From the NCBI GenBank assembly GCA_044892505.1, contig CM097882.1, positions 66,092,001 through 66,156,000 on the forward strand: a DNA stretch of 64,000 nucleotides, in the 5' to 3' direction. Of this stretch, positions 23,301 through 48,640 are shown in pieces. The position numbers were made by a program, and so were the translations under genes. The stretch comes from Schmidtea nova. Its lineage: Eukaryota. Within the stretch, counting starts at the first letter, position 1, and each line of letters begins with the position of its first letter. Below the pieces are notes generated by a model that had not been told where the DNA came from, did not search any database, and saw only the letters and a list, made by a program, of their open reading frames with translations.

Positions 23301-23718
23301 TTGTTTATATTATTTTTATTATCATTATCTTATTAGTATCTTAATCGCTGTTATTTTTGAGGGCATCCTTGTGGATACAGGATGACCCCCCTTTTTTATT
23401 TTTTATGTAATATTACTTAAAATAATATTAAAAATTAAAAATAGATAATTAAAATCAAAGAAAAACAAGTAAATCAATACCTATAGAAATTGGTAAAACT
23501 ATGGGAATTTAAAAAGAAAATTGACGGATGTGGTAAATGAAATCATGAAAAATAAGAAAATTGAAAATTAAGAAAACAGAGGATATATCGGTGGAAAAAT
23601 ACTTTTGGAATTTTTAGACTTTGTAATTACGTGAGTACAGGTTGATATTTACTGTTATATATAAGTCAATCACATAATAAACAGCCATCCTCGATATAAA
23701 AACAAACAATTTAACCCT
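20309..23718 (+). mobile_element. Non-autonomous Gypsy-type LTR element (Gag-protease only)
   Basis: Direct repeats 20309-20890 and 23297-23718, both cut by N gaps; the 3' copy lacks about 165 bp. PBS TGGTGTCAGAAG at 20914 (tRNA-Leu type). PPT aaagggggaag at about 23262, then tgtaaagg at 23276. Confidence 0.85.
21132..23048 (+). CDS. 638-aa Gag-protease fusion ending in an integrase C-terminal GPF motif; no RT, RNase H or integrase core
   Basis: CYFHNKFGEKAFKCTKPC knuckle; FLIDTGS; IIGADFL; KYEGPFKLL. Confidence 0.85.
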   Translation: MTNPMPNFFVSENGSLQAWLKVAKLTLSLSEITSSKLICSQILTAIPSHIHNEISDQIGEMFTKNNPFEKLCSILANQTNKMQIQEYFTNNRQKDNIQNNFPKPLKQNLEYVQTKIANLDSNEQISCQTSATKNNQTEKKILTDMAHKINAGTYPSINSTHDNKNKTSNHEQYEEENERTEFNETNKILSILISQLDKIATENKRFKLELKEIKEKNLKQYYYPNQTLYKLNWPNPNTRNQNQNFHNNKNKETGNRQKFWKPEIKLANQEFCYFHNKFGEKAFKCTKPCRYTEKNSEKLKSLPLVAPTFHETNTKKLETLPVVAHTFIDKNNAFMVQSNDAEFLIDTGSVISLLPHYLHKNSKNAEKHLTAANGTNIKTFGEHTLTLTINSKKYSWTFLIADVQQAIIGADFLAHYNLTVDCRNKTLTENTSTSKETVKTMATTISKIDIGVIQMGPTNNKSKQNLNHGPEINTLLEKVDKLIATVTFDEKANIKNNEQITTKNSENIENKLKGILKKRPNSENDGKTILTTDYLLIKKPCTKDSEDKYEGPFKLLEINKNVATIIKNNNKIRINIRRTKPFHYNPKPLCNISHNETQTKKKHIKFNNKNEIKNFDKNAIITRYKKLYSECLTQHNTT

Positions 23719-25899: not shown

Positions 25900-27560
25900 A
25901 TACTAAAATAACATGAACTACTAGCTTAGATTCCGAGAAAGACTTTAGATATTTATATTTTGCGTCAATTTATAGTACATCCTAGAAATCAGAGAGTTAG
26001 TGCGGGACAAAGATGCGCAACGAACTTTCCATCGGTCGACACCATCCATTCCTTTGTTATAATTTATTTATCTCGGGATATTGAAATCAACCTTTTGCTT
26101 CTGAGCATTACACCACCTTTTCACTTTTCCCACAGGATCTACATGATCAAAATTGGATTCAATAGTAATAACATTGTTATCCTTCCAATGTACAATTATA
26201 ATTTCATTTTTTGTGTCAAATCGGTAATCATACTCAGCTCTAGGCTGTTTCTTCATTTTCTTCACATCTCTGAGTGGACATTTCTTTGTTCTATTTTCTC
26301 GTATTGTTCTAGTTGCTCTCTAGCCCGAATGTCGCAAATCATATAACAACTGATGGTTTGTAAAAAAGTTATTGAAGTACATGATATGTTCTTTTGGGAC
26401 AATAGGTAACTTTTCCAGAAGAGATTTTACTACTCTCGCACGGAGAGGATCAACAGAAAACTCTTTGGACTTACCGCAATAAACATCAAACGCGTAGCAG
26501 TTAGCCATCTGAACTTGTTGCAGCCCGATTTCGATTACCAAATCGTGTGGGTTTTCCCATAATAAATTGTTTGGCTGGATGATGGCCAAAGTATTTTATC
26601 AGGGACTCATCCACAGACATGAAAAACCTTCTTTTGACAAGAGATTCTCTGAAGAAGAATACACAACGGTCTGACTTTGAACATTTTATCATTCAAACTT
26701 TAAGCTTGAGTATTATCAAGAAAATGTAGGATTCTTTTAATTTCTTGAAATCTGTTGCGTGGCATACAATTCGATACTAATGGAATGCCAAAATCTTCAT
26801 CCAAACTCCAATAAGCATGTTCAGTAGGCAAGTTATGATAACCTATTAAGATTAATATTTCCAAAGATTTCTTCAAATATGCTTGATTAATTTCAAAATT
26901 ATGTCTTTTATTTTGATTTGCGTACAAAATACTGTTTTCAACAATCAGGTTCATTACACTTTCATCAAAAGATTTTCGAACAAGATAACAGGGTTGTAGT
27001 CTTTCATTGATTTTAAAAGACTTTTTTGTCTATTCTGATAACATCGGTAATGTCATGGCTTGTACTGTATGAAGGCAAAGTTTTCATCCATACAGGTTCC
27101 TCACAATCATATTTTCTAGCTCGTTTCGCAGGTCTTACGTAATTAGAAAGAGGTATATCATCCTCGCCGTTTCGGCCTGAATACTCAAGATCGAGATAAC
27201 GAGATATTACCTGGATAGTACATGGCGCATCTCTTCAAAGAGTTGAAGAGGTAACATCATCATCATTTCCTTCTTCTTCATCACTCAAAACAGCAAGATC
27301 TGGTGGAACGAAGAGAACATCGTACTCCTCATTTTTATTATTATTATTATCATCAGCCATTATTGATTCGAGAGCTTCTTCTAATCCTAAATAGTTATTT
27401 TGACTTGTAAAGATGTAACGGAATGCCATTGTAAAAACTTTGGGAATGCTACAAAATATAAATAATTTTAGTACAGATCTGCCCATTGTACTCACTTGAG
27501 TACAGTGCAACAAAATGCAGCCTACTGCATTGTAATTTAAACAGATTGTAAAAATAATAA
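25900..27560 (-). pseudogene. Decayed piggyBac (PGBD3-like) transposase, copy 1
   Basis: ORF pieces: MPRNRFQEIKRILHF, SVDESLIKYFGHHPAKQFIMGKPTRFG, MYFNNFFT, VHWKDNNVITI. Multiple stops and frameshifts. Confidence 0.9.
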
Positions 27561-27614
27561 TACCACATGTTTTACTATAGTCTAATTGTATATTGCATTA
27601 AAGAAATAGTCAAA
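25991..27614 (+). repeat. 1624-bp direct repeat, copy A (copy B at 31560-33183)
   Basis: All piggyBac ORF fragments recur with identical translation at a constant offset of 5569. Both junctions were read directly. Confidence 0.95.
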
Positions 27615-30600
27615 TAATAAATAGTCGATAATGAAGAGTCCGAAAAAAATTTTTGATGATACACCCGCCGTTAACCAGTGCTTAGTTGAATGTCTTCACA
27701 TAGACATTCCTAGCACTGGTCAGAAAGAAGATCCTGATCAAGCTATTATTTTATATAAAAACAATAACTTAATTTTTCCTTCTAGAACATCATCCTTACA
27801 ACCTCTCGAAACTATGAAGAAATACAACAAAACCCAGAATTTTTCCATCAACATTAAACTATCCTTATCAAACCCTAATCCCAATTCTACTTTTGTAAAT
27901 ACCACCGATGGAACTCTCAACCCAAATGATCATAAAATAATATCCCAAAAATCAGAGAATTTGAAATCCAAAAAAATTACAGAATCTATAACTAAGTCTG
28001 AAGAATTCAATTCTAATTTAGAAATTTTTACTAATAAAAATTTCAAAAATGAAAATAGTGGAAGTCATCACTACTTTAATAATAAAAATTACCATTCAAA
28101 TCAAGAAACTTCTAATAAATCCTATAGCAAAGAATATCATAATAAAAATTTAAAAAATAAAAATTTCAATTTCGAAAACTATGAAAAATATGATAATAAC
28201 ACCAATTATTATAAAAATACTGAAGAACCTTATAAAAAATATCAACTTAAAAACTATGAAAATAATAAAAATAAAATACCAAAATTTGAAAATAAAGAAG
28301 AATATTATAACACCAATGAAATGAATACAGAAGATTATATAAAAATTAAAAAATTTAACTTTTTAAATGATTATTATCAAAAAAATCGAAAATATTTTAA
28401 AAGACTCGAAAAAATTCCTATAAATAGAATTATTTTCGAAATTTTAAAATCAAAAGCATTTTTTGAAAATAGGGAAAATTTGTTTAAATTAAAAGCAAAT
28501 TTCAGAGTTCCCGATAATGAAGAGTCCGAAAAAAATTTTTTGCCACCCTGCGGGGGGCAAAAAACTCGTCCGCCTTCGGCGGACAAACAGAATGTAAATA
28601 TCCCAGCAACTGAAAAGAAAGAACTATTCGGTTTTGAGAAAGAACCAAGATATCGTAACATCAGAAAAATTAAAACTAATCAATCTATTACTCCTACAAA
28701 ATCAACAACAACATCAATCATCCCATCTACTTCAATGGTCCCACCAACATCAAGTGTCCCACCAAACTCAATTGTCCCAGCAATATCACTCGTCCCTTCA
28801 ACATCAAAAGATCCTTCAACATCTAATGCTTCTCCTACATCTAATGCTTCTTCAACATCAAAAACTCCTTCAACATCAAATAACCCATCAAAACCAACAG
28901 ATCTTCGATCTTCAACTGCCCCTACAACATCAACTAATCCTTCAACATCTACTAAGCCTTCAACATCAACTGCTCCCTCAACATCAACTGCTCCGTCAAC
29001 ATCAACTGCTCCGACAACATCAACTGCTCCGTCAACATCAACTAATCCTTCAACATCAACTGCTCCCTCAACATCAACTGCTCCTTCAACATCAACTGCT
29101 CCCTCAACATCAACTGAACCTTCAACCCCAACTGCTCCTCTTAAATCCCTCCCAAACATAAATACCACACAAATTACTACCCCCACTGTCCCGAATGATA
29201 TTGCCAAAGCAAATCTGTATTACTCATTTTATAAACCCTCTATACAGATCAAAGGAAAACCTGATGAAATATTCCATATCATTGAAAAAACTCCAGTTAA
29301 CTGGGATATCTTTAATCAGGAAAGGCTTATAAAAACTGAAGAAATCAAAAATTTTAACAATTCACAAATTAGAGTATTAGTGAAAGAATATGCCTCGCTC
29401 CTCTTCTCACTGAACAACATTAAACAAGAAAATTTGAAACTACTTCAAGCTGCAAATGAAAACTTTATTGTCTGGAAACCAATACTCGAAAAAATAGGTG
29501 GAATCAGAGATTTCATTAAAATTAAGAACTTACAGAAAGAAGTCATTGAAGATTTATTTAAAAAATATCACAATTTTTACACCACTCCATCAACTACTCC
29601 ATCAACATCTACTATTCCCCTAACGTCAACCACTAACTCAAAATGTACGGGTCCTTCAACATCTACTGACCTTTCAACATCTACTACTCTTTCAACATCT
29701 ACTACTCTTTCAACATCTACTACTCTTTCAACATCTACTACTCTTTCAACATCTACTACTCTTTCAACATCTACTACTCTTTCAACTTATTCTACTCCTT
29801 CAACATCTACTGGTCCCTTGACCTGTACTGCTCCTTCAACAACGACTAACCCTTCAACATCTAATGATCCCTCAACCTCTACTGCTACTCCAACAACCAC
29901 TGATCTTTCAACATCTACTAATCCCTCAACTTATAAACAATCAAACAATATCTTCATCTTCGGTTCTACACCCTCAAATCCTACAAATCTTTCATGTAAC
30001 ACTAATATCCACAAATACAATACCAGATTGAATACTAAAATTATCTCTCTCCCAGATAAAGAACAGACTGCTTCCTATTACAGAACTTATAATCCAATAC
30101 CCTCCGAAAAAAGAAAACCACTTGAAATATTTAATATCATCCATAAAACTCCAATTTTCTGGGATATATTTAACAAAAATAAGAAACTCACCACTAAGGA
30201 TATTTGCTCGATGAATGAAAAAACAATTGAAGACCTGATAAATCACTATATCGTTTTCTTCTCCTCCCCTCCACTTCATCTGGATAAATCAAAAACTTTC
30301 CAAGTAATTCATAACGATATATACAACTGGCTCCCTGCCTTGGAACTATGTGGAATCACAGACTACCTTACCCTATGCAACTTATCAGCAAACGACATGA
30401 ATAAACTTAACTTTGAATACAACAATGAAAGTACTCAATCACAAAAAGACCTCATTGAATTTGCAGGAGAATCCATGTTCAATACTACCCAAAGACCTAT
30501 TGAGAAAATTTATGCATCAGTTAGCATTATCGACCTGATGTATGACATCTCCAAATTAAAAAATAAAATGATTAATAATGAAGAAAAGAGAATTTCAATA

Positions 30601-31508
30601 TCACACTGCAAACCCCCAACTTGGTTCCCTCTCTTATGCATCCTAGGTGAGGACGCCATCGATTATCTAGAAATATCAAAATCTGAATTCATTAAAATGT
30701 TGATTAAAGCCCAAACATTTCATAAAGAAAGTCACTTTGTATCAATTGACCCTCCTGAAGATGACCTGGATAAAATGATGTGTGAATATTTACACATATA
30801 AAAAATCTCTATCTCCCAATCAATCCTATCTTCCTGAATCCAATCTCCTGCTCTTAGATTCACACCTGCTCAACATTTTCAATCTCCCAATCAATTGTTG
30901 ATCCTACTCACACAATTCCACAACATGTTCACCGAAACAAACTACTACCTCCTGCTCTAAGATTCGCACCTGCTCAATATTCTCAATCTCTCAATCAATA
31001 TTCACACCGATCCTCAATATTCACACCTGCTCAACATTTTCAATCTCCCAATCAATTGTTGATCCTACTCACACAATTCCACAACATGTTCACCGAAACA
31101 AACTACTACCTCCTGCTCTAAGATTCGCACCTGCTCAATATTCTCAATCTCTCAATCAATATTCACACCGATCCTCAATATTCACACCTGCTCAATATTC
31201 TCAATTTCCCAATCAATAGTCAATCCTACCCACACCATTCAACAACATGTTCTCCGAAAAATACTACTACCTCCTGCTCTAAGATTCACACCTGCTCAAT
31301 ATTCTCAATCTCTCAATCAATACTCTCCTCCTGATCCAACAATCCAGTGTCCCTAAACCAGACATTGGCTAGAAGTTTATGAAAATGCTAAAATAAGCTG
31401 GAACTAATGTCTCTGCCCTCAGGGGTGGGACTCGTTAGCCTGTCTCCTCGGAGCAGAAGTTTTTTTTTTAAATAAAATTTGTAGGCCCACTTCTCAGGGT
31501 GGGTCGCC

Positions 31509-31559
<51 letters not shown>
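27615..31559 (+). mobile_element. Poly(A)-tailed 3.9-kb insert between the two direct repeats (retroposed sequence?)
   Basis: Contains one long ORF, 162-bp tandem repeats (about 30860-31330), aataaa at about 31470 and about 50 A at 31512-31560 abutting repeat copy B. Confidence 0.65.
27631..30801 (+). CDS. 1056-aa orphan protein with Asn/Lys-rich N-terminus, STSTAP/STSTTL repeats and a duplicated globular domain
   Basis: Uninterrupted ORF with 18-bp coding repeats. YY.FY.P...KP.EIF.II.KTP..WDIFN occurs twice. No family recognised. Confidence 0.7.
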   Translation: MKSPKKIFDDTPAVNQCLVECLHIDIPSTGQKEDPDQAIILYKNNNLIFPSRTSSLQPLETMKKYNKTQNFSINIKLSLSNPNPNSTFVNTTDGTLNPNDHKIISQKSENLKSKKITESITKSEEFNSNLEIFTNKNFKNENSGSHHYFNNKNYHSNQETSNKSYSKEYHNKNLKNKNFNFENYEKYDNNTNYYKNTEEPYKKYQLKNYENNKNKIPKFENKEEYYNTNEMNTEDYIKIKKFNFLNDYYQKNRKYFKRLEKIPINRIIFEILKSKAFFENRENLFKLKANFRVPDNEESEKNFLPPCGGQKTRPPSADKQNVNIPATEKKELFGFEKEPRYRNIRKIKTNQSITPTKSTTTSIIPSTSMVPPTSSVPPNSIVPAISLVPSTSKDPSTSNASPTSNASSTSKTPSTSNNPSKPTDLRSSTAPTTSTNPSTSTKPSTSTAPSTSTAPSTSTAPTTSTAPSTSTNPSTSTAPSTSTAPSTSTAPSTSTEPSTPTAPLKSLPNINTTQITTPTVPNDIAKANLYYSFYKPSIQIKGKPDEIFHIIEKTPVNWDIFNQERLIKTEEIKNFNNSQIRVLVKEYASLLFSLNNIKQENLKLLQAANENFIVWKPILEKIGGIRDFIKIKNLQKEVIEDLFKKYHNFYTTPSTTPSTSTIPLTSTTNSKCTGPSTSTDLSTSTTLSTSTTLSTSTTLSTSTTLSTSTTLSTSTTLSTYSTPSTSTGPLTCTAPSTTTNPSTSNDPSTSTATPTTTDLSTSTNPSTYKQSNNIFIFGSTPSNPTNLSCNTNIHKYNTRLNTKIISLPDKEQTASYYRTYNPIPSEKRKPLEIFNIIHKTPIFWDIFNKNKKLTTKDICSMNEKTIEDLINHYIVFFSSPPLHLDKSKTFQVIHNDIYNWLPALELCGITDYLTLCNLSANDMNKLNFEYNNESTQSQKDLIEFAGESMFNTTQRPIEKIYASVSIIDLMYDISKLKNKMINNEEKRISISHCKPPTWFPLLCILGEDAIDYLEISKSEFIKMLIKAQTFHKESHFVSIDPPEDDLDKMMCEYLHI

Positions 31560-31563
<4 letters not shown>

Positions 31564-33183
31564 AGTTAGTGCGGGACAAAGATGCGCAACGAACTTTCCA
31601 TCGGTCGACACCATCCATTCCTTTGTTATAATTTATTTATCTCGGGATATTGAAATCAACCTTTTGCTTCTGAGCATTACACCACCTTTTCACTTTTCCC
31701 ACAGGATCTACATGATCAAAATTGGATTCAATAGTAATAACATTGTTATCCTTCCAATGTACAATTATAATTTCATTTTTTGTGTCAAATCGGTAATCAT
31801 ACTCAGCTCTAGGCTGTTTCTTCATTTTCTTCACATCTCTGAGTGGACATTTCTTTGTTCTATTTTCTCGTATTGTTCTAGTTGCTCTCTAGCCCGAATG
31901 TCGCAAATCATATAACAACTGATGGTTTGTAAAAAAGTTATTGAAGTACATGATATGTTCTTTTGGGACAATAGGTAACTTTTCCAGAAGAGATTTTACT
32001 ACTCTCGCACGGAGAGGATCAACAGAAAACTCTTTGGACTTACCGCAATAAACATCAAACGCGTAGCAGTTAGCCATCTGAACTTGTTGCAGCCCGATTT
32101 CGATTACCAAATCGTGTGGGTTTTCCCATAATAAATTGTTTGGCTGGATGATGGCCAAAGTATTTTATCAGGGACTCATCCACAGACATGAAAAACCTTC
32201 TTTTGACAAGAGATTCTCTGAAGAAGAATACACAACGGTCTGACTTTGAACATTTTATCATTCAAACTTTAAGCTTGAGTATTATCAAGAAAATGTAGGA
32301 TTCTTTTAATTTCTTGAAATCTGTTGCGTGGCATACAATTCGATACTAATGGAATGCCAAAATCTTCATCCAAACTCCAATAAGCATGTTCAGTAGGCAA
32401 GTTATGATAACCTATTAAGATTAATATTTCCAAAGATTTCTTCAAATATGCTTGATTAATTTCAAAATTATGTCTTTTATTTTGATTTGCGTACAAAATA
32501 CTGTTTTCAACAATCAGGTTCATTACACTTTCATCAAAAGATTTTCGAACAAGATAACAGGGTTGTAGTCTTTCATTGATTTTAAAAGACTTTTTTGTCT
32601 ATTCTGATAACATCGGTAATGTCATGGCTTGTACTGTATGAAGGCAAAGTTTTCATCCATACAGGTTCCTCACAATCATATTTTCTAGCTCGTTTCGCAG
32701 GTCTTACGTAATTAGAAAGAGGTATATCATCCTCGCCGTTTCGGCCTGAATACTCAAGATCGAGATAACGAGATATTACCTGGATAGTACATGGCGCATC
32801 TCTTCAAAGAGTTGAAGAGGTAACATCATCATCATTTCCTTCTTCTTCATCACTCAAAACAGCAAGATCTGGTGGAACGAAGAGAACATCGTACTCCTCA
32901 TTTTTATTATTATTATTATCATCAGCCATTATTGATTCGAGAGCTTCTTCTAATCCTAAATAGTTATTTTGACTTGTAAAGATGTAACGGAATGCCATTG
33001 TAAAAACTTTGGGAATGCTACAAAATATAAATAATTTTAGTACAGATCTGCCCATTGTACTCACTTGAGTACAGTGCAACAAAATGCAGCCTACTGCATT
33101 GTAATTTAAACAGATTGTAAAAATAATAATACCACATGTTTTACTATAGTCTAATTGTATATTGCATTAAAGAAATAGTCAAA
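31560..33183 (+). repeat. 1624-bp direct repeat, copy B (piggyBac pseudogene copy 2, minus strand)
   Basis: Matches 25991-27614. Confidence 0.95.
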
Positions 33184-35032: not shown

Positions 35033-36092
35033 TGTTGAGGTTCCAAATATTTGCTATTTGCAATCTCAACTTGTTATTGGGGTGATTCTTATATAAATAT
35101 CAAAAGCAAAGTTTGTTTTTCAAAAGTTTATTAATACAATAAAATTACTTTTTATATCGTTTACAATTTTCTACGAATAACTCAAATTCTTTATTACACA
35201 AATTTAAAAAGAAAAAGTCGTATCAAATCAATTCTTGCAATTGAACCTATTGGGTGACTGTTATGTAGTGCGTGCTATATTTAATTGTGGATCCAATGTT
35301 TCTGATCCGGGTTTTAATAAGTTATTCAAGATTGCCTTGAAAACTCAATTTGCGCTAATTTTAAATCTTGATTTTACACTAGATTTTAAAGCTAGGATTT
35401 TTTTGGGCGTTTTTACTGATTTTTTCTTTAGTTTATATAGTAAAATTTGGTATGGATAAATAATTTAATTTCCGGTCTGATATTAAAATATTATTAAATT
35501 TAGTTTTCAATTTATTCTATACTCTGCGATTAAAATAATTATATTTTAATTTCCTGTCTTGTCGTGATATTAAAATTTTCAATTTATTTATTCTGTGATA
35601 TAATTATATTTTAATTTCCTGCCTTGTCACGATATCAAAATTTCCAAATTATTTCGTATTCTGTGATATTAAAATATTATCCAGATTTAATTATTTTTAA
35701 ATAACTGAATTAAATTATTTTATTTATTGATCTGTTTGTTTTATATGTATATACAACTCATAAAATAATAAAATCAATAAAATCAAGATACACCTAAAAT
35801 AATAAAAGGAATAAAATCAAGATACACCTATTTTATATGTACATGCAAATCATAAACTACACATCAAGATATATTAAAAGAAAACAAATGTTTGTTGAGA
35901 AATGTCACAATAATAAAATGTCACAATCATATTAATTTTCTTGATGGGAGTTGCAATCTTTGTTGTGTGGCTTGGATTGGGATTCTGTGTATTGGGATTC
36001 CGCGTAAATGTTGATCCTATAGCTGTTAGGCCCTGTCCTATAATATTTATTTAGGACAAATGCTTGGATGGGCTTCCCTCGATCATCCAACA
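35033..36092 (-). repeat. 3' LTR (1060 bp)
   Basis: Matches 47581-48640 at a constant offset of 12548. No difference found by eye. Confidence 0.96.
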
Positions 36093-38248: not shown

Positions 38249-41200
38249 TTATACCAATGTAGACCTCGAATATTCACCTGGTATATATTTACCCAAATGG
38301 AAATGCCCTGGTACATTTCTGACCAGTTGGCTCCGATACCGCTGCCTTTTCCATTTGTACTTTTTATAAACTTGTACGCTAGTTATTAAAGCTAAAACTG
38401 CTAATGCTATTATTGATGTTGTGATGACATAAAAAGGCCAATGTGGATTTTTATCTTTTTTACGAAATGCTTGTAGTTCCTCTAAGTTATGTATCACTAT
38501 TGGTCTTCCTTGCCTTATTTTGATAGGTTCTTGTTTTTGTTTTTTGGCATTGTATTGTTTTTGGAGTTTGGCTATTCCAGTGCTTGTTGGTGTTTCGTTT
38601 GTATGTAGTGTGGTATTTAGTCTATTATTTGATGTCGTTGTTGTGCTTTTTGTTATGTTTTGGTTTTTTATTATATCCTTGGGTAATTGTTCTGTTTTTA
38701 TCTCTTTGCATCTCCATGTTGTTGTATCTGTGTTTCTCTGTATGCAGATTTTATATATTGTATTAGGTGTTAGTTTTGTGAAATTAATATAGTTTCCTCT
38801 TTCAATTTCGTTGGTTGTTCTGTCGTCCTTTCCTTTTATCATCTTTGGGCTTTTCCCATTCGTTGTTTGCATGTATAAATCAATTACTCCTCTATTTATG
38901 ATAAATGCTCTGACTTCGTTTGTTGATATTTTTATTAATACTCTGTCAAATTCTATTGTTTCGGTTGAGCCAACAATTGTTATGATTGTTAAGAAGATAG
39001 CTGATATTATTAGTTTGTTGTGAGATCTTAGATTATACTTGTGAGGTTTATCTATCGTGACCTCGGCTTCCGCCAACTTGCATCTGTTGACATGTACTAC
39101 TATTGGATCCTCGTTTTTATGCTTTTGTAAATGTAAATTCTCATTTATTACTTTTACTACTTCATATGGACCTTTATATGGTCTTGCTAATTTTGTTGTC
39201 TTTCCCTTTCCTACTTGTGGTGACATAAGTCTAACCTTATCACCTACTTTAAAGTTGTGTGGTTTACTATTTTTGTCGTAGTCGGCTTTGTATTGTTCTT
39301 GTCTATATTTGACCTTTAGATTGGCTACTTTATACACTTCTTGCAGTTTTTCCTGCATTAGTGTGACATAATCTGGTGCATCTAAATATTGTGATACTCG
39401 AGGTTCAAATATTGTATCTATTGGTGTTGCTGGTTCTCTTAAAAACATTAAATAATACGGCGAATACCCTGTTGTTTCGTTTGGAGTGATATTATGAATG
39501 TATGTGCATTGACTTATGTATTCGTCCCAATCATTTTGATTTTTTCCTACAAAAACAGCTAGTCTGCTTAGTAATGTCCCATTAAATCTTTCTACTAGTC
39601 CATCAGTTTGAGGGTGATACGCTGTTGTGTTGATCTTTTGCATGTTAAAAATATTAGCTACTCGTTTTATTAATTCACTAGTAAAATTTGTTCCTTTATC
39701 TGTTAATAATCTTTTGGGTGTGCCTATCTTGAAAATAATTTTTTCTATAAGCAATTTAGCAACTGTTTCTGCTGTTTCGTCTTTTGTTGGAAATGCTTCT
39801 GCCCATCTAGTAAAATAATCACTAAATACTAGTATATGTTTATTCCCATTAATTGTGGTAGGTAATTTACATAGAAAATCCATTGCACATAGTTCCATTG
39901 GTGATGTCGTTGCTGGAATGGGATGTAACGGCGCTTTTGTTTTTGTACCTGTATTTTTTCTTGTTGCACATATTGTACACGCGTTACACCATCTCTTAAC
40001 ATCTTTCTTTAATTCTTCCCAGTAATATTTTTGTAATAATCTACTTGCTGTCTTTCTAGATGATAAGTGACCTCCTAATGCTCCATCGTGATATTGTAGT
40101 AGGAGTATTTGTCTTAATTTCTGAGGTACTACTATTAATTGCTTACCGTTGAAATCTTCTATTACTACTAATTTCTTTGATATTTTATATTTTGAATTGT
40201 TTTCTTTTCTGATTTCATTCCTTATTCTATTGATCTCTGGGTCTTTCATCTGTTCCTCATATATATCTATTGGCTTTTCTGCTACTAGTGCAAATATTTC
40301 AAGTGCTCCTAATTCTGGTATTCTTGATAGTGCATCTGCGTTTTTATTTATTCTACCTGGTTTATATATAATTTTTAGGTGCATGTCTTGTATTTTCATT
40401 GCCCATTTAAGTAATCTACTTGATGTATCTTTATGTTTCCATAAGCCTTCTAATGGTTTATGGTCTGTTCTTATTATCACTTCAGTTCCGTAGATGTATG
40501 GTTTGAATTGTTTTAGGGCAAATACTATTGCGTAACATTCTTTTTCTATTGTTGAATACCTCAGCTGTGCTCCTTTTAATGTTTTACTGGCATATGCTAT
40601 TACGTAATCTTTCCCTTTCTCTTCTTCTTGGCCTAATACTGCTCCTACGGCTTTCCCGCTGGCATCCTTCATTACTATAAATTGTTTTTCGAAATTTGGG
40701 TATCTTAACACTGGTGCTGTTATCAATCTTTCTTTTAGTTTGTCGAATGCTTCTTGATGTTCTTTTGTCCATTTCTTTTGTATCTTGTTAACTTTATTGT
40801 TAATTTCTTGTACTATTAACACGTCTTTGCATTCTCCTTTTGTTTTAATTCCCTTTGTTAGTTCTATTATAGGTGTTGCTATCTTTGCATAATCTTGTAT
40901 GAATTTACGATAGTATCCTGTTAAGCCTAAAAACCCTTGTACTTGTTGTACTGTTTTTGGTATTGGGAATTTCTTTACAACTTCTATTTTTTCTGGATTT
41001 GGTTTTATCCCTTCTACTGTGACTATATGCCCTAAAAATAATGCCGAAGACTCTGCCCATTTACATTTAGTTGGTTTAATTTTTATCCTTGCTTTTCTTA
41101 GTCTCTCAAGTACGTTTGTTATATCTTTTAGATGTTCCTCGAATGTCTTTGATGATATTAATATGTCATCCATGTAAACTGCGCAGTGTTGTACATTTAC

Positions 41201-44200
41201 TAATATTGTGTTCATTAGACGTTGAAATGTAGCTGGCGCATTAGTTAATCCGAAGGGTAATCGTGTGTACTCATATAAACCATCCTCAATAACAAATGCT
41301 GTTTTTTCTGCATCCCCTTCTTCCATTTGAATTTGCATATACCCCTTATTCGCATCAATGACTGAAAAATACTTAGCATCCCTAAGTTTATCATATTGCT
41401 CTTGTGCTTTTGGGAATGGATATGAATCTTTTACTGTTACATCATTTAATTTACGATAGTCAATGCACATTCTTATTTCTCCGTCTTTCTTTTTGACGGG
41501 TACAATGGGTGATGCCCACTGTGAAAAACTTTGTTTTATTACACCTGCGTCTTTTAATTCTTTAATTTGTCGCTTTATCTCCTCTCTTAGTTTGTATGGT
41601 ACGCTATATGGTCTTTGTTTTATTGGTCTTGCATTGCCCGTATCTATTACATGTTTGATTATGTCAGTATCTCCTAAATCAAATTCATGTTTTGCAAAAA
41701 CATCGCTGTATTCATCTATTAGTGTCTGTAATTGTGCTTGTTGTGTTATTGTTAGGTATTTATTATTGATTTTCACTTTGTCGTATGATTTTATACTATT
41801 TGTCTTACTAGGTTCGACCACTCTTTTGCCGTTATCATTTATCACACTTGTCTCGCTGACTTCATACGTTTTCTCTAATTCACCTTTGAATAATTTTCCC
41901 AATTTCGTACCTTTGTGTATTTTAACATTACTTTTTTCATAATTTGCTATTCTCAATGGTATTATTCCCTTTCTCGGAATTACGCATTCATTGGTTAGCA
42001 TTATATTCTGATTTTGTATAATTGCCGTTTCTGGTTCAAAAATAAAAGTGTCCTCACTTTTGACGTTAACTTTTATGGGGATTATATGATCACACTCATA
42101 TTCTAATTCGAATGCTTCTAATGCAACAACTTCCGTGAACTTGGACTTATGTTTGATAGCTTTTCTTTTAATCGTGTTATCCGTTAAGTCTATGATGCAG
42201 TTATTCAGCTTGTTGAGTATATCGATCCCTAGTATACATATGCTATTGCATTCTTGTACTACTTTAAATATGTGGTGTATTACTTGTTCTGATGTTTCAA
42301 CTACTAATTCAATATCTCCTTTTAGTGGAATGTAGTGTGCTGATAGTGTTACTACTTTATCCGTTGTTTTCATAATATTTCTCTTTTGATCATCTGTCAG
42401 TTGATCTTCTCTAATTAAGGATGTTGCTGCTCCTGTGTCTACTAATGCATTTATGATTATATTGTTTATAATTATTCTAAGTCTTGGTCTTGCTTCGTTT
42501 GCTGCATCTAATCGTTCCATTGTTTCGACTTCTAAGCTATAACAACCATATATCTTTTTAGGTTCACAATGACAATTCTTGTTTTCTCTAGGAATTTTGA
42601 TTTCTATATTTTCTTGTAGCTCTTTTAGTTGTTCTCTTTGGTTTTCATATAGTCCTTGTTGTGGTACATTTCCTTCATGTGATATATGCGCTTTAATTAT
42701 TTCCTCATCGTTTTCATCATCTACCAGTAATTGCCTTTCTTCACTCCTTTGGACTTTTATTAAACGTATTTCCTTGTCGTGTTTCGCCGTAATAAGATAT
42801 TTAGCTATAAATGGGCACAAACATGCTAATAATTTATATGAATTTCCAAATACTTGTTTTAGCTGTCTCAGTGATACTAGAGAAGAACATATCATTTTTA
42901 GTAATGCAACCGTATAATATATACCTAAGATTGTAGAAAACATGTTTCCAAGGACTGCAAAGTATCCCCATATGCTATATAGTACTTTATATGCTACTTT
43001 TTTGAAGTATTCTTTTGATAATAACACATCAAAGTTGTAATTTCCTCCGTAACTTCCTTCGATAACTCTGTTTACCATTATTGAAAGTACTCTTTCTTTT
43101 TCGTTTGGAAATAGCATGTGTTTTCTTGCACTTTCTATAGCTTCTCTCGTATATATGCCATTACTGTCCATATCGTTGATTTCTTTAAACTCTAATCTTT
43201 TTTCTAGCTCTATGAGTTCTAATTTGAGTGGTTTCATTGCCTCCTTTCTATCCGACATAGATATCCACATTTCGTCATTTATTTTGTATAATGGGTCTAA
43301 TAGGTTAGTGCATTTGTCTATTTTTCTCGGTATATATGTTTTTTCTGTTAATATTCTAGTAATTGGTTGAAGGTATACCCTTTCTCCTTTATATATTACC
43401 GGTAATTCATTAGTGCACTGATTATTTGTTGCTAACGATACACTAACAGGTTTACATTGAAATGTCTGTATCACTTCTCCTACTATCCTTGCAAATGTTC
43501 CTTCTTCTGAGAAGATTATTGGTGCCATTAAATCTGGGTTTGTTACCGCCACTGCCATTTTTGTCCTCAATATTTCTCTGTTGAGTTTGCAATCGCTCAT
43601 AATTGTTGATTGATATACTTTATCTAATTGTACTAGTTGGTTATGATAGAAAAAATCGATTTTATTGTTGAAGTATGATGCAAGTTTGACGTCGAATTTA
43701 TTTACTTTTTGTTTTGCATCTTTGACTTCTTCTTTGCTTATGTATATCCCTTCATAATTAGTTTGTATTATTTCCTTACCACATTTTACACTTTTCCTTT
43801 TACTAACAAACCTCATTGCTTCGTTTTCAGATTCTGACATATATATTGTTGGTGTATCTTTTTCTTGTACAATTGTTGTTTTCCTTTTTTGATCTCTCAC
43901 CCTTTTTGAGTCTACTTCTGTGAACTGTTTTCCTTTGATTTCCCTAAATTTTAATGATTTTAATTTTGTTAACTGACAATCATATTTATCTATTTTGTAT
44001 ATTAGCATTGATTCTCCTGTATCGCAATAAGATTCTTCTAATGTACAAAATTTGTATATCATCATTTTCTTTGAGCTGCTGTCGAATGATGCTTTGAACT
44101 TTCTCAGTTCTACCATGTAGTGTCTCCTTACTACAACATTACTCAGTTTTTCGCCCCATATTGTATATTCTCCTCCTTCACAATATCCTCCTTTTGATGT

Positions 44201-47200
44201 CCATCCCACGACATTTACATCTTGTCTCATTTTTGCCCCTATCCTTGCTTCTAATTCTATTCCTTTATGACCGCTATATTTTACTTTTTTTGTTTTAAAT
44301 GCATCTTCACACTCTATTGGTGACAATATTACTGCTTCGGGTGTCCACGTAGGTTTTAACACTGTTCTTGCCCCAACATGACATATATATGCTTCCTCCT
44401 GATACTTTATTATGCACTCTTTGGCCTCTGTATGAATAAAGTCTGATTCTTGATAAACATGGAATATTTGAGGCTCTGACATGATTAATTTAGTTGGATT
44501 TGCTTCAGGGCAATTTTCAACATCTAACAGTGAGTATTTTTGTCCCCACTTTGGATTTTGACAATCATATGCTACCATTGCATTGCCTCCCTTGATTAAA
44601 TCTAATAACAAAGTGATAATGACTATTACTATGGAGGTTATCGATTTACTCTCTGTCTTTGGTTTTACTGTTGCTTTCTTTATTAATTGTTTTATTACCT
44701 CATCTGTATCACTCTCTTTATTCGTCGTATCTTTATCATATAATACTTTCCATCCTCCTTTCTTTTTTATCCATGGTATTGCCTCTACTTTCAATCTTTT
44801 AAACATCATTGTTGCTACTTTTTCTAATTGCTCTTTTGGATTTTCCTTTATGAGCTTTTTATATCTTGCGGCCAAGTATGCCATGGCCGTTATTATTTTA
44901 TCTTTATCTATCCCTGTATTAAACATGATTTTTAACACTGTTTTTTCATTTGCTTCCTCTGTAGCTAGTTCTTTAGTATCCTTTTTAATTAACATCATCC
45001 TTTCAGTTATATTTTCAATAAGTACTGTTGGCTTTGTTTCTGGAAATAGCTTAATATTCATTGCTTTTATTACTTCTTTTATTTTGTTTACGTCATTATT
45101 ATCGTCTTGATACTCTGGTTGTTCATGTTTATGTTGATTTGCAATCTCTCTTAATCGTTCTGCTGTCTTCCTATTCTCCGATTTTTCTATTATTTCTGAT
45201 TTTCGAGGTCTTCCTCTACCTCGTTTTGATGTTTCTGCATCTTTTGTTTTTGCTTCCTCAGCTATTCTTTCTATTGTTTCTTGTAAGTTACTATACTTTT
45301 CATCTATAGGTTTAAATATAATTTCTTCATCCATTACTGATTTCTTTGTTTCGCTAGGTGATTTATCCCATAGCCTAAATAATCTATCAAAATCGTTTTC
45401 TTCATTTATACTCAACTCAACTGACGGTACTGGCGTCATTATTTCATTGATCATTTGTTTTTCTACTGTGGCTACCACAATATTATCACTTACTGGGTTT
45501 ATCCCATAATCGATTAAGTACTCGTCACTTAATAATTCTATTCCGTTAAAATATAATTTTATTACATCTTTCTCTCCTATGGTTCCTGGCCATTTGGCTC
45601 TTACCATTCGTTTTAATTTGCTCACTTTAGTGCAAGTATGCATCTTTTGTTTAATACTAAAAAAATAATTATCATTTGATTCAATCGTTACATTTAGTGT
45701 TTCATGCAATTTTTCATTTTTTCTTATATATTCTCCATAACATTTCAACATCTCTTTTATTTCTATTTCTAATTCAAATACTCTCGTTATATTTTGTCTC
45801 TTTACCATCATTGGTATTAAATTTCTAAGTCTCTCTAAATCAATCCCATTAACCTGTATTTTATTGATTACTCTTAATGTTTCATTGTCATCAAACGGTT
45901 GCTTATGCAATACCTCTTTAAATTCCTCTATTAATTCTTTTTGTCTATTTTCTTCTGTAAGAAATATTTCATCTGCTTTTCTAATTTCCTTTAACTCATC
46001 ATTATCAATATCTACTTCATTTGTAAAGGTGCTAAATTCATTTATAGACATTTCAAGTTTTCTCTCAATAAGTCTTCCATATTGAGTTTTAAATTCTTTT
46101 AGTTCCTCTCTTAATATATTTATTTCTTTATTTGCTGATTCGAGCTCAGCACTATTTACTTGTTTTATCTCAGGCTCATTTTTAAATCTTACTCTTATTG
46201 GTGAATCTGCTCGTGGTTTATTACATACCTTTGCTAGGTGGCCATACTTTTGGCAATTATAACATTTTATTTGTCCATTGAAATTCACTTTATCTCTACC
46301 ATCATTATTATAAGTATTTCTCTTCACTGGGCTATCTTGCCTATTTCTCGAATTATCTCTATATCTATTATCTCTTCTATTATATTCGAAGCGACTATCT
46401 CTATTATTTTTATTATATCCACTGTAACTGTTTCTGTTATAACCAGAACGACTATCTCTAAAATTATCTCTGTTGTCTCTATCATTATCTCTATCAAAAC
46501 GATTGTCTCTAAAACTGTCTCTATTATTGTTTCTTTGATAACTATCTTTAAAATTATTTCTATTTCTATTATCGAAATTTTTATTTCCTGGACTACTAAA
46601 CCTTCCCCTGTTTTCAGGTGATTGGCTTCTATTAGGACTAAATTTTCTTCTATTATTGACAAAATTCAAGTACAATTGTTTCATTTCTTCCCAGGGAATA
46701 CTATCATCCTTATTTCTCAACTCAGGTTTTACCTCGGGTTGTTTTTCAACTTCTACAGCATCTACCTCTGGTTTAAATCTATCTCTTTGTATTGCTTCGA
46801 TACGTTTTGCCTTTTGAACTAACTCATTTAAGTCTTCATACTCAATTGTAATTAATGCTTTGTATAAATATTTTTGGATGCCGTTCCAAAACTGATCCTC
46901 AATTAATTTACTAGTGTGATCTCCGGCACCAAATGCCTTTTTTGCTAATTCTGTTATCGTGTATATATATTCACCTACTGATTCTCTGGCTCCTTGGTAT
47001 CTACTTCTAAATTTTTGAACATTTATTTTTTGTAAGTCTCTATCTATTACTATTTCTTTTCTAAGGTTTGTAACTAACTCTTGATAATTAATGCCTTTAC
47101 ATAATAAATTATTGTATGCTTGTAATGCGTATCCTTTTAAATATAATGGAATTCGTTGTTTTAATTCATTTGTTTTCCATCCGCAAGCCTCTGCATATTG

Positions 47201-47338
47201 TGCGATTTCAGCAAAAAAGTCGTCGAACTTTTCAGGGTCTCCTTTATATGATTCTATTGGTAGTGTTTTTATAAAATTATGACTATTTCCTATGATATCG
47301 TTATTACTGTTGTTACTACTACTTGTACTATTACTCAT
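38249..47338 (-). CDS. 3029-aa Gag-accessory-Env-Pol-membrane protein polyprotein
   Basis: Gag CA at the N-terminus. CYNCQKYGHLAKVC about 46222-46264. UBL about 45460-45700. AT-hook RGRGRPRK about 45201-45227. Bcl-2-like about 44740-45170. Signal about 44580-44645. Glycoprotein MVAYDC about 44578 to TM about 42790. LVDTGA about 42430. YMDD about 41170. RNase H DAS/EKE/TDH about 40300-40760. Integrase HHCC+DDE+GPY about 39100-40090. Second signal about 38967-39015. C-terminal TM about 38366-38435. Confidence 0.95.
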   Translation of the reverse strand: MSNSTSSSNNSNNDIIGNSHNFIKTLPIESYKGDPEKFDDFFAEIAQYAEACGWKTNELKQRIPLYLKGYALQAYNNLLCKGINYQELVTNLRKEIVIDRDLQKINVQKFRSRYQGARESVGEYIYTITELAKKAFGAGDHTSKLIEDQFWNGIQKYLYKALITIEYEDLNELVQKAKRIEAIQRDRFKPEVDAVEVEKQPEVKPELRNKDDSIPWEEMKQLYLNFVNNRRKFSPNRSQSPENRGRFSSPGNKNFDNRNRNNFKDSYQRNNNRDSFRDNRFDRDNDRDNRDNFRDSRSGYNRNSYSGYNKNNRDSRFEYNRRDNRYRDNSRNRQDSPVKRNTYNNDGRDKVNFNGQIKCYNCQKYGHLAKVCNKPRADSPIRVRFKNEPEIKQVNSAELESANKEINILREELKEFKTQYGRLIERKLEMSINEFSTFTNEVDIDNDELKEIRKADEIFLTEENRQKELIEEFKEVLHKQPFDDNETLRVINKIQVNGIDLERLRNLIPMMVKRQNITRVFELEIEIKEMLKCYGEYIRKNEKLHETLNVTIESNDNYFFSIKQKMHTCTKVSKLKRMVRAKWPGTIGEKDVIKLYFNGIELLSDEYLIDYGINPVSDNIVVATVEKQMINEIMTPVPSVELSINEENDFDRLFRLWDKSPSETKKSVMDEEIIFKPIDEKYSNLQETIERIAEEAKTKDAETSKRGRGRPRKSEIIEKSENRKTAERLREIANQHKHEQPEYQDDNNDVNKIKEVIKAMNIKLFPETKPTVLIENITERMMLIKKDTKELATEEANEKTVLKIMFNTGIDKDKIITAMAYLAARYKKLIKENPKEQLEKVATMMFKRLKVEAIPWIKKKGGWKVLYDKDTTNKESDTDEVIKQLIKKATVKPKTESKSITSIVIVIITLLLDLIKGGNAMVAYDCQNPKWGQKYSLLDVENCPEANPTKLIMSEPQIFHVYQESDFIHTEAKECIIKYQEEAYICHVGARTVLKPTWTPEAVILSPIECEDAFKTKKVKYSGHKGIELEARIGAKMRQDVNVVGWTSKGGYCEGGEYTIWGEKLSNVVVRRHYMVELRKFKASFDSSSKKMMIYKFCTLEESYCDTGESMLIYKIDKYDCQLTKLKSLKFREIKGKQFTEVDSKRVRDQKRKTTIVQEKDTPTIYMSESENEAMRFVSKRKSVKCGKEIIQTNYEGIYISKEEVKDAKQKVNKFDVKLASYFNNKIDFFYHNQLVQLDKVYQSTIMSDCKLNREILRTKMAVAVTNPDLMAPIIFSEEGTFARIVGEVIQTFQCKPVSVSLATNNQCTNELPVIYKGERVYLQPITRILTEKTYIPRKIDKCTNLLDPLYKINDEMWISMSDRKEAMKPLKLELIELEKRLEFKEINDMDSNGIYTREAIESARKHMLFPNEKERVLSIMVNRVIEGSYGGNYNFDVLLSKEYFKKVAYKVLYSIWGYFAVLGNMFSTILGIYYTVALLKMICSSLVSLRQLKQVFGNSYKLLACLCPFIAKYLITAKHDKEIRLIKVQRSEERQLLVDDENDEEIIKAHISHEGNVPQQGLYENQREQLKELQENIEIKIPRENKNCHCEPKKIYGCYSLEVETMERLDAANEARPRLRIIINNIIINALVDTGAATSLIREDQLTDDQKRNIMKTTDKVVTLSAHYIPLKGDIELVVETSEQVIHHIFKVVQECNSICILGIDILNKLNNCIIDLTDNTIKRKAIKHKSKFTEVVALEAFELEYECDHIIPIKVNVKSEDTFIFEPETAIIQNQNIMLTNECVIPRKGIIPLRIANYEKSNVKIHKGTKLGKLFKGELEKTYEVSETSVINDNGKRVVEPSKTNSIKSYDKVKINNKYLTITQQAQLQTLIDEYSDVFAKHEFDLGDTDIIKHVIDTGNARPIKQRPYSVPYKLREEIKRQIKELKDAGVIKQSFSQWASPIVPVKKKDGEIRMCIDYRKLNDVTVKDSYPFPKAQEQYDKLRDAKYFSVIDANKGYMQIQMEEGDAEKTAFVIEDGLYEYTRLPFGLTNAPATFQRLMNTILVNVQHCAVYMDDILISSKTFEEHLKDITNVLERLRKARIKIKPTKCKWAESSALFLGHIVTVEGIKPNPEKIEVVKKFPIPKTVQQVQGFLGLTGYYRKFIQDYAKIATPIIELTKGIKTKGECKDVLIVQEINNKVNKIQKKWTKEHQEAFDKLKERLITAPVLRYPNFEKQFIVMKDASGKAVGAVLGQEEEKGKDYVIAYASKTLKGAQLRYSTIEKECYAIVFALKQFKPYIYGTEVIIRTDHKPLEGLWKHKDTSSRLLKWAMKIQDMHLKIIYKPGRINKNADALSRIPELGALEIFALVAEKPIDIYEEQMKDPEINRIRNEIRKENNSKYKISKKLVVIEDFNGKQLIVVPQKLRQILLLQYHDGALGGHLSSRKTASRLLQKYYWEELKKDVKRWCNACTICATRKNTGTKTKAPLHPIPATTSPMELCAMDFLCKLPTTINGNKHILVFSDYFTRWAEAFPTKDETAETVAKLLIEKIIFKIGTPKRLLTDKGTNFTSELIKRVANIFNMQKINTTAYHPQTDGLVERFNGTLLSRLAVFVGKNQNDWDEYISQCTYIHNITPNETTGYSPYYLMFLREPATPIDTIFEPRVSQYLDAPDYVTLMQEKLQEVYKVANLKVKYRQEQYKADYDKNSKPHNFKVGDKVRLMSPQVGKGKTTKLARPYKGPYEVVKVINENLHLQKHKNEDPIVVHVNRCKLAEAEVTIDKPHKYNLRSHNKLIISAIFLTIITIVGSTETIEFDRVLIKISTNEVRAFIINRGVIDLYMQTTNGKSPKMIKGKDDRTTNEIERGNYINFTKLTPNTIYKICIQRNTDTTTWRCKEIKTEQLPKDIIKNQNITKSTTTTSNNRLNTTLHTNETPTSTGIAKLQKQYNAKKQKQEPIKIRQGRPIVIHNLEELQAFRKKDKNPHWPFYVITTSIIALAVLALITSVQVYKKYKWKRQRYRSQLVRNVPGHFHLGKYIPGEYSRSTLV

Positions 47339-47560
47339 GTTGTAGATTGTTCTATTTCTTAATTGATGTATTATTTCAGGTGCTGTATCTATGTTTATTT
47401 TATTAGCTTTTTTAATGGTTTTAGTTCTTTATATGTTTGTATATCTTTGAATTTCTACTTTGGTCAATAATATTTAGATAAATATATTTTCCCGATATAT
47501 ATTACAATATCCCTCTGATCGCAATTCCTATCCCCCAATTGATATTATGATATTTTATTG

Positions 47561-47580: not shown

Positions 47581-48640
47581 TGTTGAGGTTCCAAATATTT
47601 GCTATTTGCAATCTCAACTTGTTATTGGGGTGATTCTTATATAAATATCAAAAGCAAAGTTTGTTTTTCAAAAGTTTATTAATACAATAAAATTACTTTT
47701 TATATCGTTTACAATTTTCTACGAATAACTCAAATTCTTTATTACACAAATTTAAAAAGAAAAAGTCGTATCAAATCAATTCTTGCAATTGAACCTATTG
47801 GGTGACTGTTATGTAGTGCGTGCTATATTTAATTGTGGATCCAATGTTTCTGATCCGGGTTTTAATAAGTTATTCAAGATTGCCTTGAAAACTCAATTTG
47901 CGCTAATTTTAAATCTTGATTTTACACTAGATTTTAAAGCTAGGATTTTTTTGGGCGTTTTTACTGATTTTTTCTTTAGTTTATATAGTAAAATTTGGTA
48001 TGGATAAATAATTTAATTTCCGGTCTGATATTAAAATATTATTAAATTTAGTTTTCAATTTATTCTATACTCTGCGATTAAAATAATTATATTTTAATTT
48101 CCTGTCTTGTCGTGATATTAAAATTTTCAATTTATTTATTCTGTGATATAATTATATTTTAATTTCCTGCCTTGTCACGATATCAAAATTTCCAAATTAT
48201 TTCGTATTCTGTGATATTAAAATATTATCCAGATTTAATTATTTTTAAATAACTGAATTAAATTATTTTATTTATTGATCTGTTTGTTTTATATGTATAT
48301 ACAACTCATAAAATAATAAAATCAATAAAATCAAGATACACCTAAAATAATAAAAGGAATAAAATCAAGATACACCTATTTTATATGTACATGCAAATCA
48401 TAAACTACACATCAAGATATATTAAAAGAAAACAAATGTTTGTTGAGAAATGTCACAATAATAAAATGTCACAATCATATTAATTTTCTTGATGGGAGTT
48501 GCAATCTTTGTTGTGTGGCTTGGATTGGGATTCTGTGTATTGGGATTCCGCGTAAATGTTGATCCTATAGCTGTTAGGCCCTGTCCTATAATATTTATTT
48601 AGGACAAATGCTTGGATGGGCTTCCCTCGATCATCCAACA
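47581..48640 (-). repeat. 5' LTR (1060 bp)
   Basis: Followed on the minus strand by the PBS and on the plus strand by TSD GAGA. Confidence 0.96.

Follow-up and report, generated by a model that had tools for sequence, protein, structure and literature searches.

A compact Burro-like Ty3/gypsy element of Schmidtea nova carries a Bcl-2-like domain ahead of the predicted signal peptide of its envelope protein

The closest described systems to the element analysed here are the giant Burro/GYPSM1 elements. According to the passages that Arkhipova and Yushenova (2019; PMC6431247) devote to them, Burro-2, -3 and -4 carry a BCL2-like motif (attributed to Grohme 2018), a Ubi2/SUMO-like motif precedes BCL2, and an env matching mononegavirus glycoproteins lies in frame between BCL2 and the protease (PR). 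Passages of a further paper (PMC13524379) catalogue flatworm GAG-ENV-POL elements with a gB-type envelope protein (Env), the ectodomains of which are flanked by a signal or a second transmembrane helix. We analysed a 64,000-nucleotide stretch of the S. nova genome (GenBank assembly GCA_044892505.1, contig CM097882.1, positions 66,092,001 to 66,156,000; hereafter the window), which contains on its minus strand a 13.6-kb element with two identical long terminal repeats (LTRs). Like Burro/GYPSM1 as presented in those passages, it encodes one polyprotein with Gag, a CCHC knuckle, a ubiquitin-like domain (Ubl), a BCL2-like domain, a mononegavirus-like Env and the order PR, reverse transcriptase (RT), RNase H (RH) and integrase (IN), together with an accessory open reading frame (ORF). 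The shared in-frame module Ubl-BCL2-env-PR upholds the connection to Burro suggested in a first-pass annotation of this DNA; that annotation had also taken the fusion to a fusogen for the unusual part, which it is not, since the in-frame env between BCL2 and PR of Burro is already in print (PMC6431247, same passages). The two differ in that the element in the window measures 13.6 kb with a 3059-amino-acid frame (more than 30 kb and an ORF1 of about 5000 amino acids in the Burro passages) and has a single knuckle and no Pfam match to MATH, BIR or ankyrin in ORF1 or ORF2. It is a compact GAG-ENV-POL member of the gB type that works like Burro and falls outside Burro by size and by the lack of MATH, BIR and ankyrin. 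In ORF order and Env type (GAG-ENV-POL, HSV/gB-type) it also resembles Smed_errantivirus_3 of S. mediterranea, a close relative catalogued in the supplement of PMC13524379. The Env fragment given there is identical to ours at 176 of 246 positions (72%, counted by hand), as close as the related family B of the same genome. A Bcl-2 domain is presumed in Smed_errantivirus_3; the string 'bcl' is absent from the main text and seven supplements of PMC13524379.

The first-pass annotation had proposed a Bcl-2-like domain in this polyprotein, and profile and fold comparisons bore it out. The domain of the window matched Pfam Bcl-2 (PF00452) with E 6.9e-7 and 30.2-30.8 bits, slightly below the curated cut-off of 31.4 bits, which several other copies of the family exceed (up to 34.9 bits). 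As a single sequence it gave weak matches to PDB sequences (best E 0.04). We assembled an alignment of 15 element domains and zero cellular sequences, with relatives drawn from the genome and a protein library (27 matches). Pfam Bcl-2 was matched by 14 of the 15, and the element-only profile reached Bcl-xL with E 2.2e-7 across the Bcl-2 homology regions BH1 to BH2. By sequence profile, the domain is thus assigned to the Bcl-2 family. Selection on it is purifying, with a ratio of nonsynonymous to synonymous substitution rates (dN/dS) of 0.11 in a comparison of 128 codons with a sister subfamily and of 0.16 in a comparison with family B, for which dS approaches saturation.

The structure predicted from the element-only alignment had a pLDDT of 82.5 (83-95 over residues 31-150), and residues 27-156 of the model already span an entire Bcl-2 chain with a predicted complete alpha1-alpha8 bundle packed about a hydrophobic alpha5; an attempt from the single sequence reached a pLDDT of 47.7 and was set aside. 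All 39 of the 39 rows listed by Foldseek against the PDB were Bcl-2 family members (E 6.7e-4, probability 1.0), and a further structure search returned mostly viral Bcl-2 proteins. In a wide VIA-align search, ranks 1-35 were Bcl-2 folds, led by Trichoplax trBcl-2L2 (Z 12.5, rmsd 3.6, 130 aligned residues), and the first unrelated fold followed at Z 5.1. The helical bundle is therefore present in the predicted structure with Bcl-2 folds on top, consistent with an eight-helix Bcl-2 fold. ESM Atlas gave no usable match to the domain, and word-index protein searches matched nothing. Collectively, these data leave the presence of a Bcl-2 domain in virtually no doubt. Its location 'inside Gag' was loosely worded: the domain shares the frame with Gag and lies about 370 amino acids past the zinc knuckle, after the Ubl. 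The region from the Ubl to the end of Env is organized as follows.

45464-45709, minus strand: ubiquitin-like domain (five-row profile matching ISG15 with E 0.002, then FAT10 and ubiquitin)
45197-45226, minus strand: AT-hook-like basic motif (AT_hook E 0.054), marking the slot 5' of Bcl-2, both in relatives that have the domain and in those that lack it
45131-45169, minus strand: BH3-like helix region (AERLREIANQ), outside the predicted bundle, in the window's clade only, without the BH3 Asp
44726-45118, minus strand: Bcl-2-fold core, amino acids 771-901 (dN/dS 0.11)
45103-45059, 45025-44966 and 44947-44921, minus strand: alpha1, alpha2-3 and alpha4 within the core
44926-44891, minus strand: BH1 within the core, DKDK replacing NWGR
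44776-44750, minus strand: BH2 within the core
44645-44728, minus strand: charged linker of 28 amino acids between the Bcl-2 core and the hydrophobic helix
44579-44644, minus strand: predicted signal peptide of Env, internal to the frame; it has a hydrophobic core, with small residues at -3 and -1, and its cleavage is predicted between 44579 and 44578
42965-44578, minus strand: Env ectodomain, 538 amino acids, gB-type (Monjiviricetes-like) fusion glycoprotein (PF24664, E 7e-88), 14 Cys
42893-42964, minus strand: predicted stop-transfer transmembrane helix of Env, amino acids 1489-1512

The BH3-like, BH1-like and BH2 motifs had been described as standing in the correct order and spacing. Their presence and order are as described, all on the minus strand in one 3059-amino-acid frame: AERLREIANQ at 45163-45134, the BH1-like MFNTGIDKDKIITAMAYLA at 44926-44870 and WIKKKGGW at 44773-44750, followed by the hydrophobic helix at 44641-44585 and the start of Env at 44578. 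The spacing is not: the Leu of the BH3-like motif lies 82 amino acids ahead of BH1, compared with 47 (counted by hand on the alignment) in host exon L031. Nor is AERLREIANQ the BH3 of the fold, as it precedes alpha1 and forms a separate, low-confidence helix (pLDDT blocks 47 and 60). Of the 13 aligned rows that have residues at this place, 4, all from the window's clade, retain the helix and the 9 others lack it; over amino acids 744-772 its region has a dN/dS of 0.18-0.23. BH1 is divergent, with DKDK in place of NWGR, and BH2 (WIxxxGGW) is present, both as claimed. Set against a canonical prosurvival protein, the domain lacks an NWGR with its glycine in BH1, a BH3 in alpha2 and a terminal tail anchor; the frame runs on into Env, and the helix has a signal-peptidase pattern and occurs without Bcl-2. 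An NWDR at BH1 in the copy L041 was considered as an ancestral remnant and rejected, because it differs by a single C-to-T change at a CpG from four other family-B copies. Among host genes, the divergent compact Bcl-2-like L036, L038, L042, L050, L056 and L059 have WSR, WSK or WSH at BH1, the glycine also being gone.

The element domain thus has a mixed set of likenesses. With the cellular prosurvival proteins Bcl-xL, Bfl-1 and trBcl-2L2 it shares the predicted eight-helix bundle, BH2, the alpha5-6 core and a downstream hydrophobic helix, but it is only 10-16% identical to them, has neither NWGR nor an alpha2 BH3, is embedded in a polyprotein, and its downstream helix is a predicted cleavable endoplasmic reticulum (ER) signal. 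It resembles the viral Bcl-2 mimics (African swine fever virus A179L, canarypox CNP058, GIV66 and M11L, and the non-groove A52, N1 and B14) in keeping the fold, in its decayed BH motifs and in its virus-like carrier; the mimics are encoded by separate genes in large DNA viruses, whereas this is a polyprotein module of a reverse-transcribing element.

The hydrophobic helix that follows the domain had been read as the tail anchor of the captured Bcl-2 protein. This origin is not supported, in view of the match to PF24664, which begins at profile position 5 on a residue within the helix, so that the viral glycoprotein model includes the helix, and of the seven Bcl-2-less relatives, all of which (7/7) keep a hydrophobic core and small -3 and -1 residues before xxYDC. 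The junction survey comprised 37 rows: 18 with Bcl-2, 7 without it that have at least 140 amino acids upstream, and 12 left out of the 7/7 count, namely P0024 (chimeric N-terminus), P0021 and P0026 (starting at or after the cut) and nine with fewer than 70 amino acids upstream (P0004, P0012-15, P0020, P0022, P0023 and P0027). Kyte-Doolittle hydropathy of the helix is 1.7-2.9 in the seven relatives and 2.7 in the window, and 16 of the 18 Bcl-2-bearing rows have a small -1 residue before xxYDC. The distance from BH2 to the helix varies from 21 to 56 amino acids among relatives, and the dN/dS of the signal helix is 0.07. From the AT-hook-like motif to YDC there are 98 amino acids in P0007 and 118 in P0010, compared with 215-239 in Bcl-2-bearing elements; the Bcl-2 slot is therefore empty in these two. 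From the profile match and the relatives, the helix is very probably Env's own signal, with Bcl-2 placed ahead of it. The proposed dual role survives in part: in topology, the helix could plausibly serve Env as a signal and the upstream domain as an anchor, but an origin as captured tail is not supported.

In the Bcl-2 tree, 13 element domains separate from 10 host exons at 96/96, which fits a single old capture with later losses, and one old capture common to compact and giant families is likely on this sequence evidence. Of the host sequences, L036 matches the element profile best (E 1.8e-7) but does not group with the element domains in the tree, so that L036 was rejected as donor and no donor is named. 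In the Env tree, P0003, which has Bcl-2, is sister to three relatives without it (support 99/96). The domain is 41% identical to that of family B, compared with 81% for the capsid and 72% for Env. Giant elements in the same genome (5140 and 5650 amino acids) have three knuckles, ankyrin repeats and a TRAF/MATH accessory ORF, and share the junction; RT-RH of the window is 52% identical to theirs, equal to other families. Bcl-2 carriage spans at least three element clades within one genome.

Hydropathy and general knowledge of internal signals suggest the following topology. The signal recognition particle would engage the helix during translation and bring the nascent chain to the ER, leaving Gag-Ubl-Bcl-2 in the cytosol; signal peptidase would cut after amino acid 950 and Env would enter the lumen, its transmembrane helix (amino acids 1489-1512) returning PR-RT-RH-IN to the cytosol, and a second signal after integrase would export a small membrane protein. 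The cleaved helix would anchor the Gag-side product, holding Bcl-2 at the ER, oriented as tail-anchored proteins are; it may tether Gag and Bcl-2 because it is the sole hydrophobic segment upstream of Env. Cleaved internal signals serve as anchors in the flavivirus capsid anchor and the hepatitis C virus core-E1 signal. The primary job of the helix would be Env translocation, probably along with tying Gag to the budding membrane, and Bcl-2 would gain its anchor free. We consider it probable that Bcl-2 stays anchored at least transiently.

An anti-death function of the domain, argued by analogy, is rather more plausible than not. It would likely dampen host cell death by a route independent of the canonical BH1 glycine. 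We lean to it because, according to passages of PMC7022251, planarians have Bak/Bcl-2 and mitochondrial outer membrane permeabilization, and M11L binds Bax/Bak although its sequence does not resemble that of Bcl-2, and because a second-hand report in a passage of PMC13465017 states that the inhibitor-of-apoptosis (IAP) region of Burro1 protects planarian stem cells from caspase-mediated apoptosis. A modelled complex of the element core and the BH3 segment of the host BOK-like exon L032 scored 0.02, the alignment not being used by the tool, and speaks neither for nor against binding. In the 20 kb upstream of each of two BAK-like exons, we found no host exon encoding a BAK BH3. At the junction, contigs of two runs of unspecified kind contained no joint, a result that bears neither on splicing nor on expression. 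On balance, we narrowly favour the reading as a whole: a compact Burro-like GAG-ENV-POL element in which a Bcl-2 fold, captured once ahead of the Env signal, would be tethered to the ER and dampen cell death without the BH1 glycine.

Several observations weigh against this reading. Foldseek TM-scores were modest (0.42-0.56), and Z values under 13 are common among helical bundles, so that the fold assignment is carried by the gap in Z together with the sequence evidence. The W and G of NWGR are retained in 0 of 17 element domains, no LxxxGD or other recognisable BH3 was seen in alpha2(-3) of the alignment, and in Bcl-2 itself G145A abolishes Bax binding and death repression (passage of PMC5841437). 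Among the seven Bcl-2-less relatives, P0016 matches the element profile weakly and in part (8.4 bits), and three have just 144-164 amino acids upstream. The Env tree is unrooted and needs four changes of the Bcl-2 label; losses are therefore likely among the seven, and the Bcl-2-less relatives alone cannot date the helix. The Env ectodomain has no N-glycosylation sequons. Finally, an ER anchor sits away from mitochondria, and protease cuts could free Bcl-2 from it.

The main rival to an anti-death function keeps the same anatomy and makes the domain a signalling inhibitor like poxvirus N1, A52, B14 and K7, acting on innate immune or TRAF/ubiquitin pathways via non-groove surfaces. The loss of the BH1 W and G in all 17 rows would suit it, as would the ISG15-like Ubl that adjoins the domain, the ankyrin repeats and TRAF/MATH accessory ORF of the giant relatives, the greatly expanded MATH family of the host, and the non-groove roles documented for Bcl-2 folds in passages of PMC7022251. 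We nevertheless hold it unlikely: cellular prosurvival and groove-using viral proteins (Z 10-12.5) outrank A52, N1L and B14 (Z 6-7.7), BH2 and alpha5-6 are retained, and NF-kB-inhibiting Bcl-2 folds are confined to poxviruses in the same passages of that review. Less probable still is a purely structural role, in which the fold would now be a matrix-like spacer linking Gag to the membrane and Env in assembly, with no part in host death. In its favour, about 20 amino acids separate the first Met from the capsid-like region, too few to hold an N-terminal matrix domain, the helix is the sole hydrophobic segment ahead of Env, and binding motifs have decayed on a retained fold; but many relatives lack the domain, and, by the identities to family B given above, it evolves far faster than capsid or Env.

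Two further alternatives concern the flanks of the domain. The earlier proposal that a cellular Bcl-2 gene was taken with its own tail anchor, which later became the Env signal peptide, draws on the helix lying 21-56 amino acids past BH2, the expected place of a tail anchor, and on an Env tree compatible with all Bcl-2-less relatives being losses. Tail anchors are expected to have a basic tail; in the window the uncharged run is only 14 residues long, ends in a signal-peptidase pattern and has no such tail. With the viral fusogen profile itself starting in the helix, and the helix kept in 7/7 Bcl-2-less relatives, including two beyond a 100/98 branch, we judge this origin improbable. As for the BH3-like helix of the window's clade, it might plug the domain's own groove, or act as a decoy for host Bcl-2 proteins once freed by the protease. 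The AxxLxEIA pattern in 4/4 rows of the clade and the 55% identity of this helix to family B (22% for the preceding linker) speak for such a built-in ligand; with the BH3 Asp missing, and the helix lacking in the 9 other rows that have residues at this place and not confidently docked in the model, it is very improbable.

The element has a 4-bp target duplication, GAGA, flanking its LTRs. The Pfam order in ORF1 is zinc knuckle, Bcl-2, Monjiviricetes fusion glycoprotein, protease, RT, RNase H and integrase. As in GAG-ENV-POL gB-type Ty3/gypsy errantiviruses, it combines LTRs and the PR-RT-RH-IN order with a gB-type Env that stands between Gag and Pol, flanked by a signal helix and a transmembrane helix. 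Its remaining features are as follows.

47581-48640, minus strand: 5' LTR, 1060 bp, TG...CA, then a primer-binding-site-like TGG stretch; 0 mismatches to the 3' LTR
38249-47428, minus strand: ORF1, 3059 amino acids stop to stop, first Met at 47338; Gag-Ubl-Bcl-2-signal-Env-PR-RT-RH-IN-membrane module
46784-47278, minus strand: Gag capsid-like region, amino acids 51-215, by position and conservation, without Pfam match; 26-41% identity to other families
46223-46264, minus strand: CCHC zinc knuckle (zf-CCHC E 0.0013), single
42496-42203, minus strand: PR (Pfam), followed by a conserved spacer domain
41497-41021, minus strand: RT (Pfam)
40771-40385, minus strand: RNase H (Pfam)
40129-39611, minus strand: integrase (Pfam)
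38369-39013, minus strand: post-integrase membrane module, with a second signal-like helix, an FN3-like ectodomain (a lead only), a Ser/Thr stalk and a transmembrane helix
35932-38382, minus strand: ORF2, 816 amino acids, acidic C-terminal part, with weak similarity to accessory ORFs in three F33xx families (E 1e-14 to 2e-18)
35033-36092, minus strand: 3' LTR, 1060 bp

A search of the same genome with the Bcl-2 domain gave at least 150 matches with identities of 83-100%, many of which lie in frames of about 3060 amino acids (150 of 2017 candidates were scored and 150/150 matched). With these copies and its identical LTRs, the element is a young, expanding, intact Ty3/gypsy element that encodes Env in the same frame as Gag and Pol, between the two. 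The capsid-like region has a dN/dS of 0.06. The spacer domain between PR and RT is conserved and aligns with that of the giant elements at 26-27%; in Burro a dUTPase-like domain sits there. Profiles of Env and of this spacer (seven rows) matched no PDB sequence, and a Pfam search of ORF2 gave no match. The two-helix pattern after integrase also occurs in family B, F3393, F3401, F3345, P0010 and P0016, and the FN3-like ectodomain had an Atlas score of 0.84. This module, which is absent from the cited passages of the papers discussed here, is possibly a second envelope or attachment protein.

Between ORF1 and the sister subfamily (L139-L140), the synonymous distance is 0.03-0.04 in RT, integrase and the C-terminus, and 0.4-0.65 across Bcl-2 and Env. 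By this difference in sequence distance, ORF1 of the window is a recombinant in which the Bcl-2-Env block was swapped between subfamilies. Opposite the Bcl-2 region runs an antisense open frame (44562-45110, plus strand, 182 amino acids; 315 in two sister copies), probably a by-product of the A-rich coding strand.

Other repeats accompany the element. A repeat of about 13 kb, present in high copy number, has terminal direct repeats and contains five ORFs; it occurs at L080:3000-L081:7100 and L085-L086 (G000:C1:14.85 Mb and 139.15 Mb). One of its ORFs encodes a 399-amino-acid BIR+RING (IAP-like) protein, with at least 150 BIR matches; no gypsy RT frame was found within it, and it is possibly a non-autonomous IAP-carrying element. 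The BIR search thus led to a repeat other than Burro. Within the window, elements with near-identical direct repeats lie at 20309-23718 (641-amino-acid Gag-protease frame, 21123-23048) and 25986-31854 (1058-amino-acid frame rich in 18-bp tandem repeats, 27625-30801). DNA-transposon-like frames on the minus strand at 12130-13977 (615 amino acids) and 6216-7115 (299 amino acids) are, as we take them from their motifs, hAT/Buster-like and IS1595-like. An inverted repeat of 171 nt, 98% perfect and spacerless, lies at 17286-17627, and a second of 92 nt at 18041-18227.

Taken together, BCL2 followed by an in-frame env and a catalogued S. mediterranea relative were already known from the passages cited, and what is new is the structural support for the domain, the likely single capture across compact and giant families and the loss of the BH1 glycine in 17/17 domains. 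In the literature consulted we found no structural or functional study of an element Bcl-2 domain and no mention of the shared helix, which Grohme 2018 and Lee 2026 (Dev Cell) may cover; the passages of PMC11410931 and bioRxiv 10.64898/2025.12.11.693146 that bear on these elements say nothing on the domain, and a passage of PMC8532177 reports that BURRO1 is derepressed upon PIWI loss. Structural and selection evidence is thereby added to what print gave as a motif note, and the element of the window offers a small, young, many-copy version of the Burro module, much more tractable than an element of 30 kb. With the isolated domain one can ask directly whether the Bcl-2 arm protects stem cells, as the Burro1 IAP is reported to do, and how it would work with the BH1 glycine lost. 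A broader, unlikely extension is that an entire clade of planarian endogenous virus-like elements, both compact and giant, shares an ancient Bcl-2 capture which, anchored by the Env signal in the ER and particle membrane, would block death by a non-canonical route and aid stem-cell survival like the Burro1 IAP; if true, it would add a second transposon-encoded arm to planarian regeneration.

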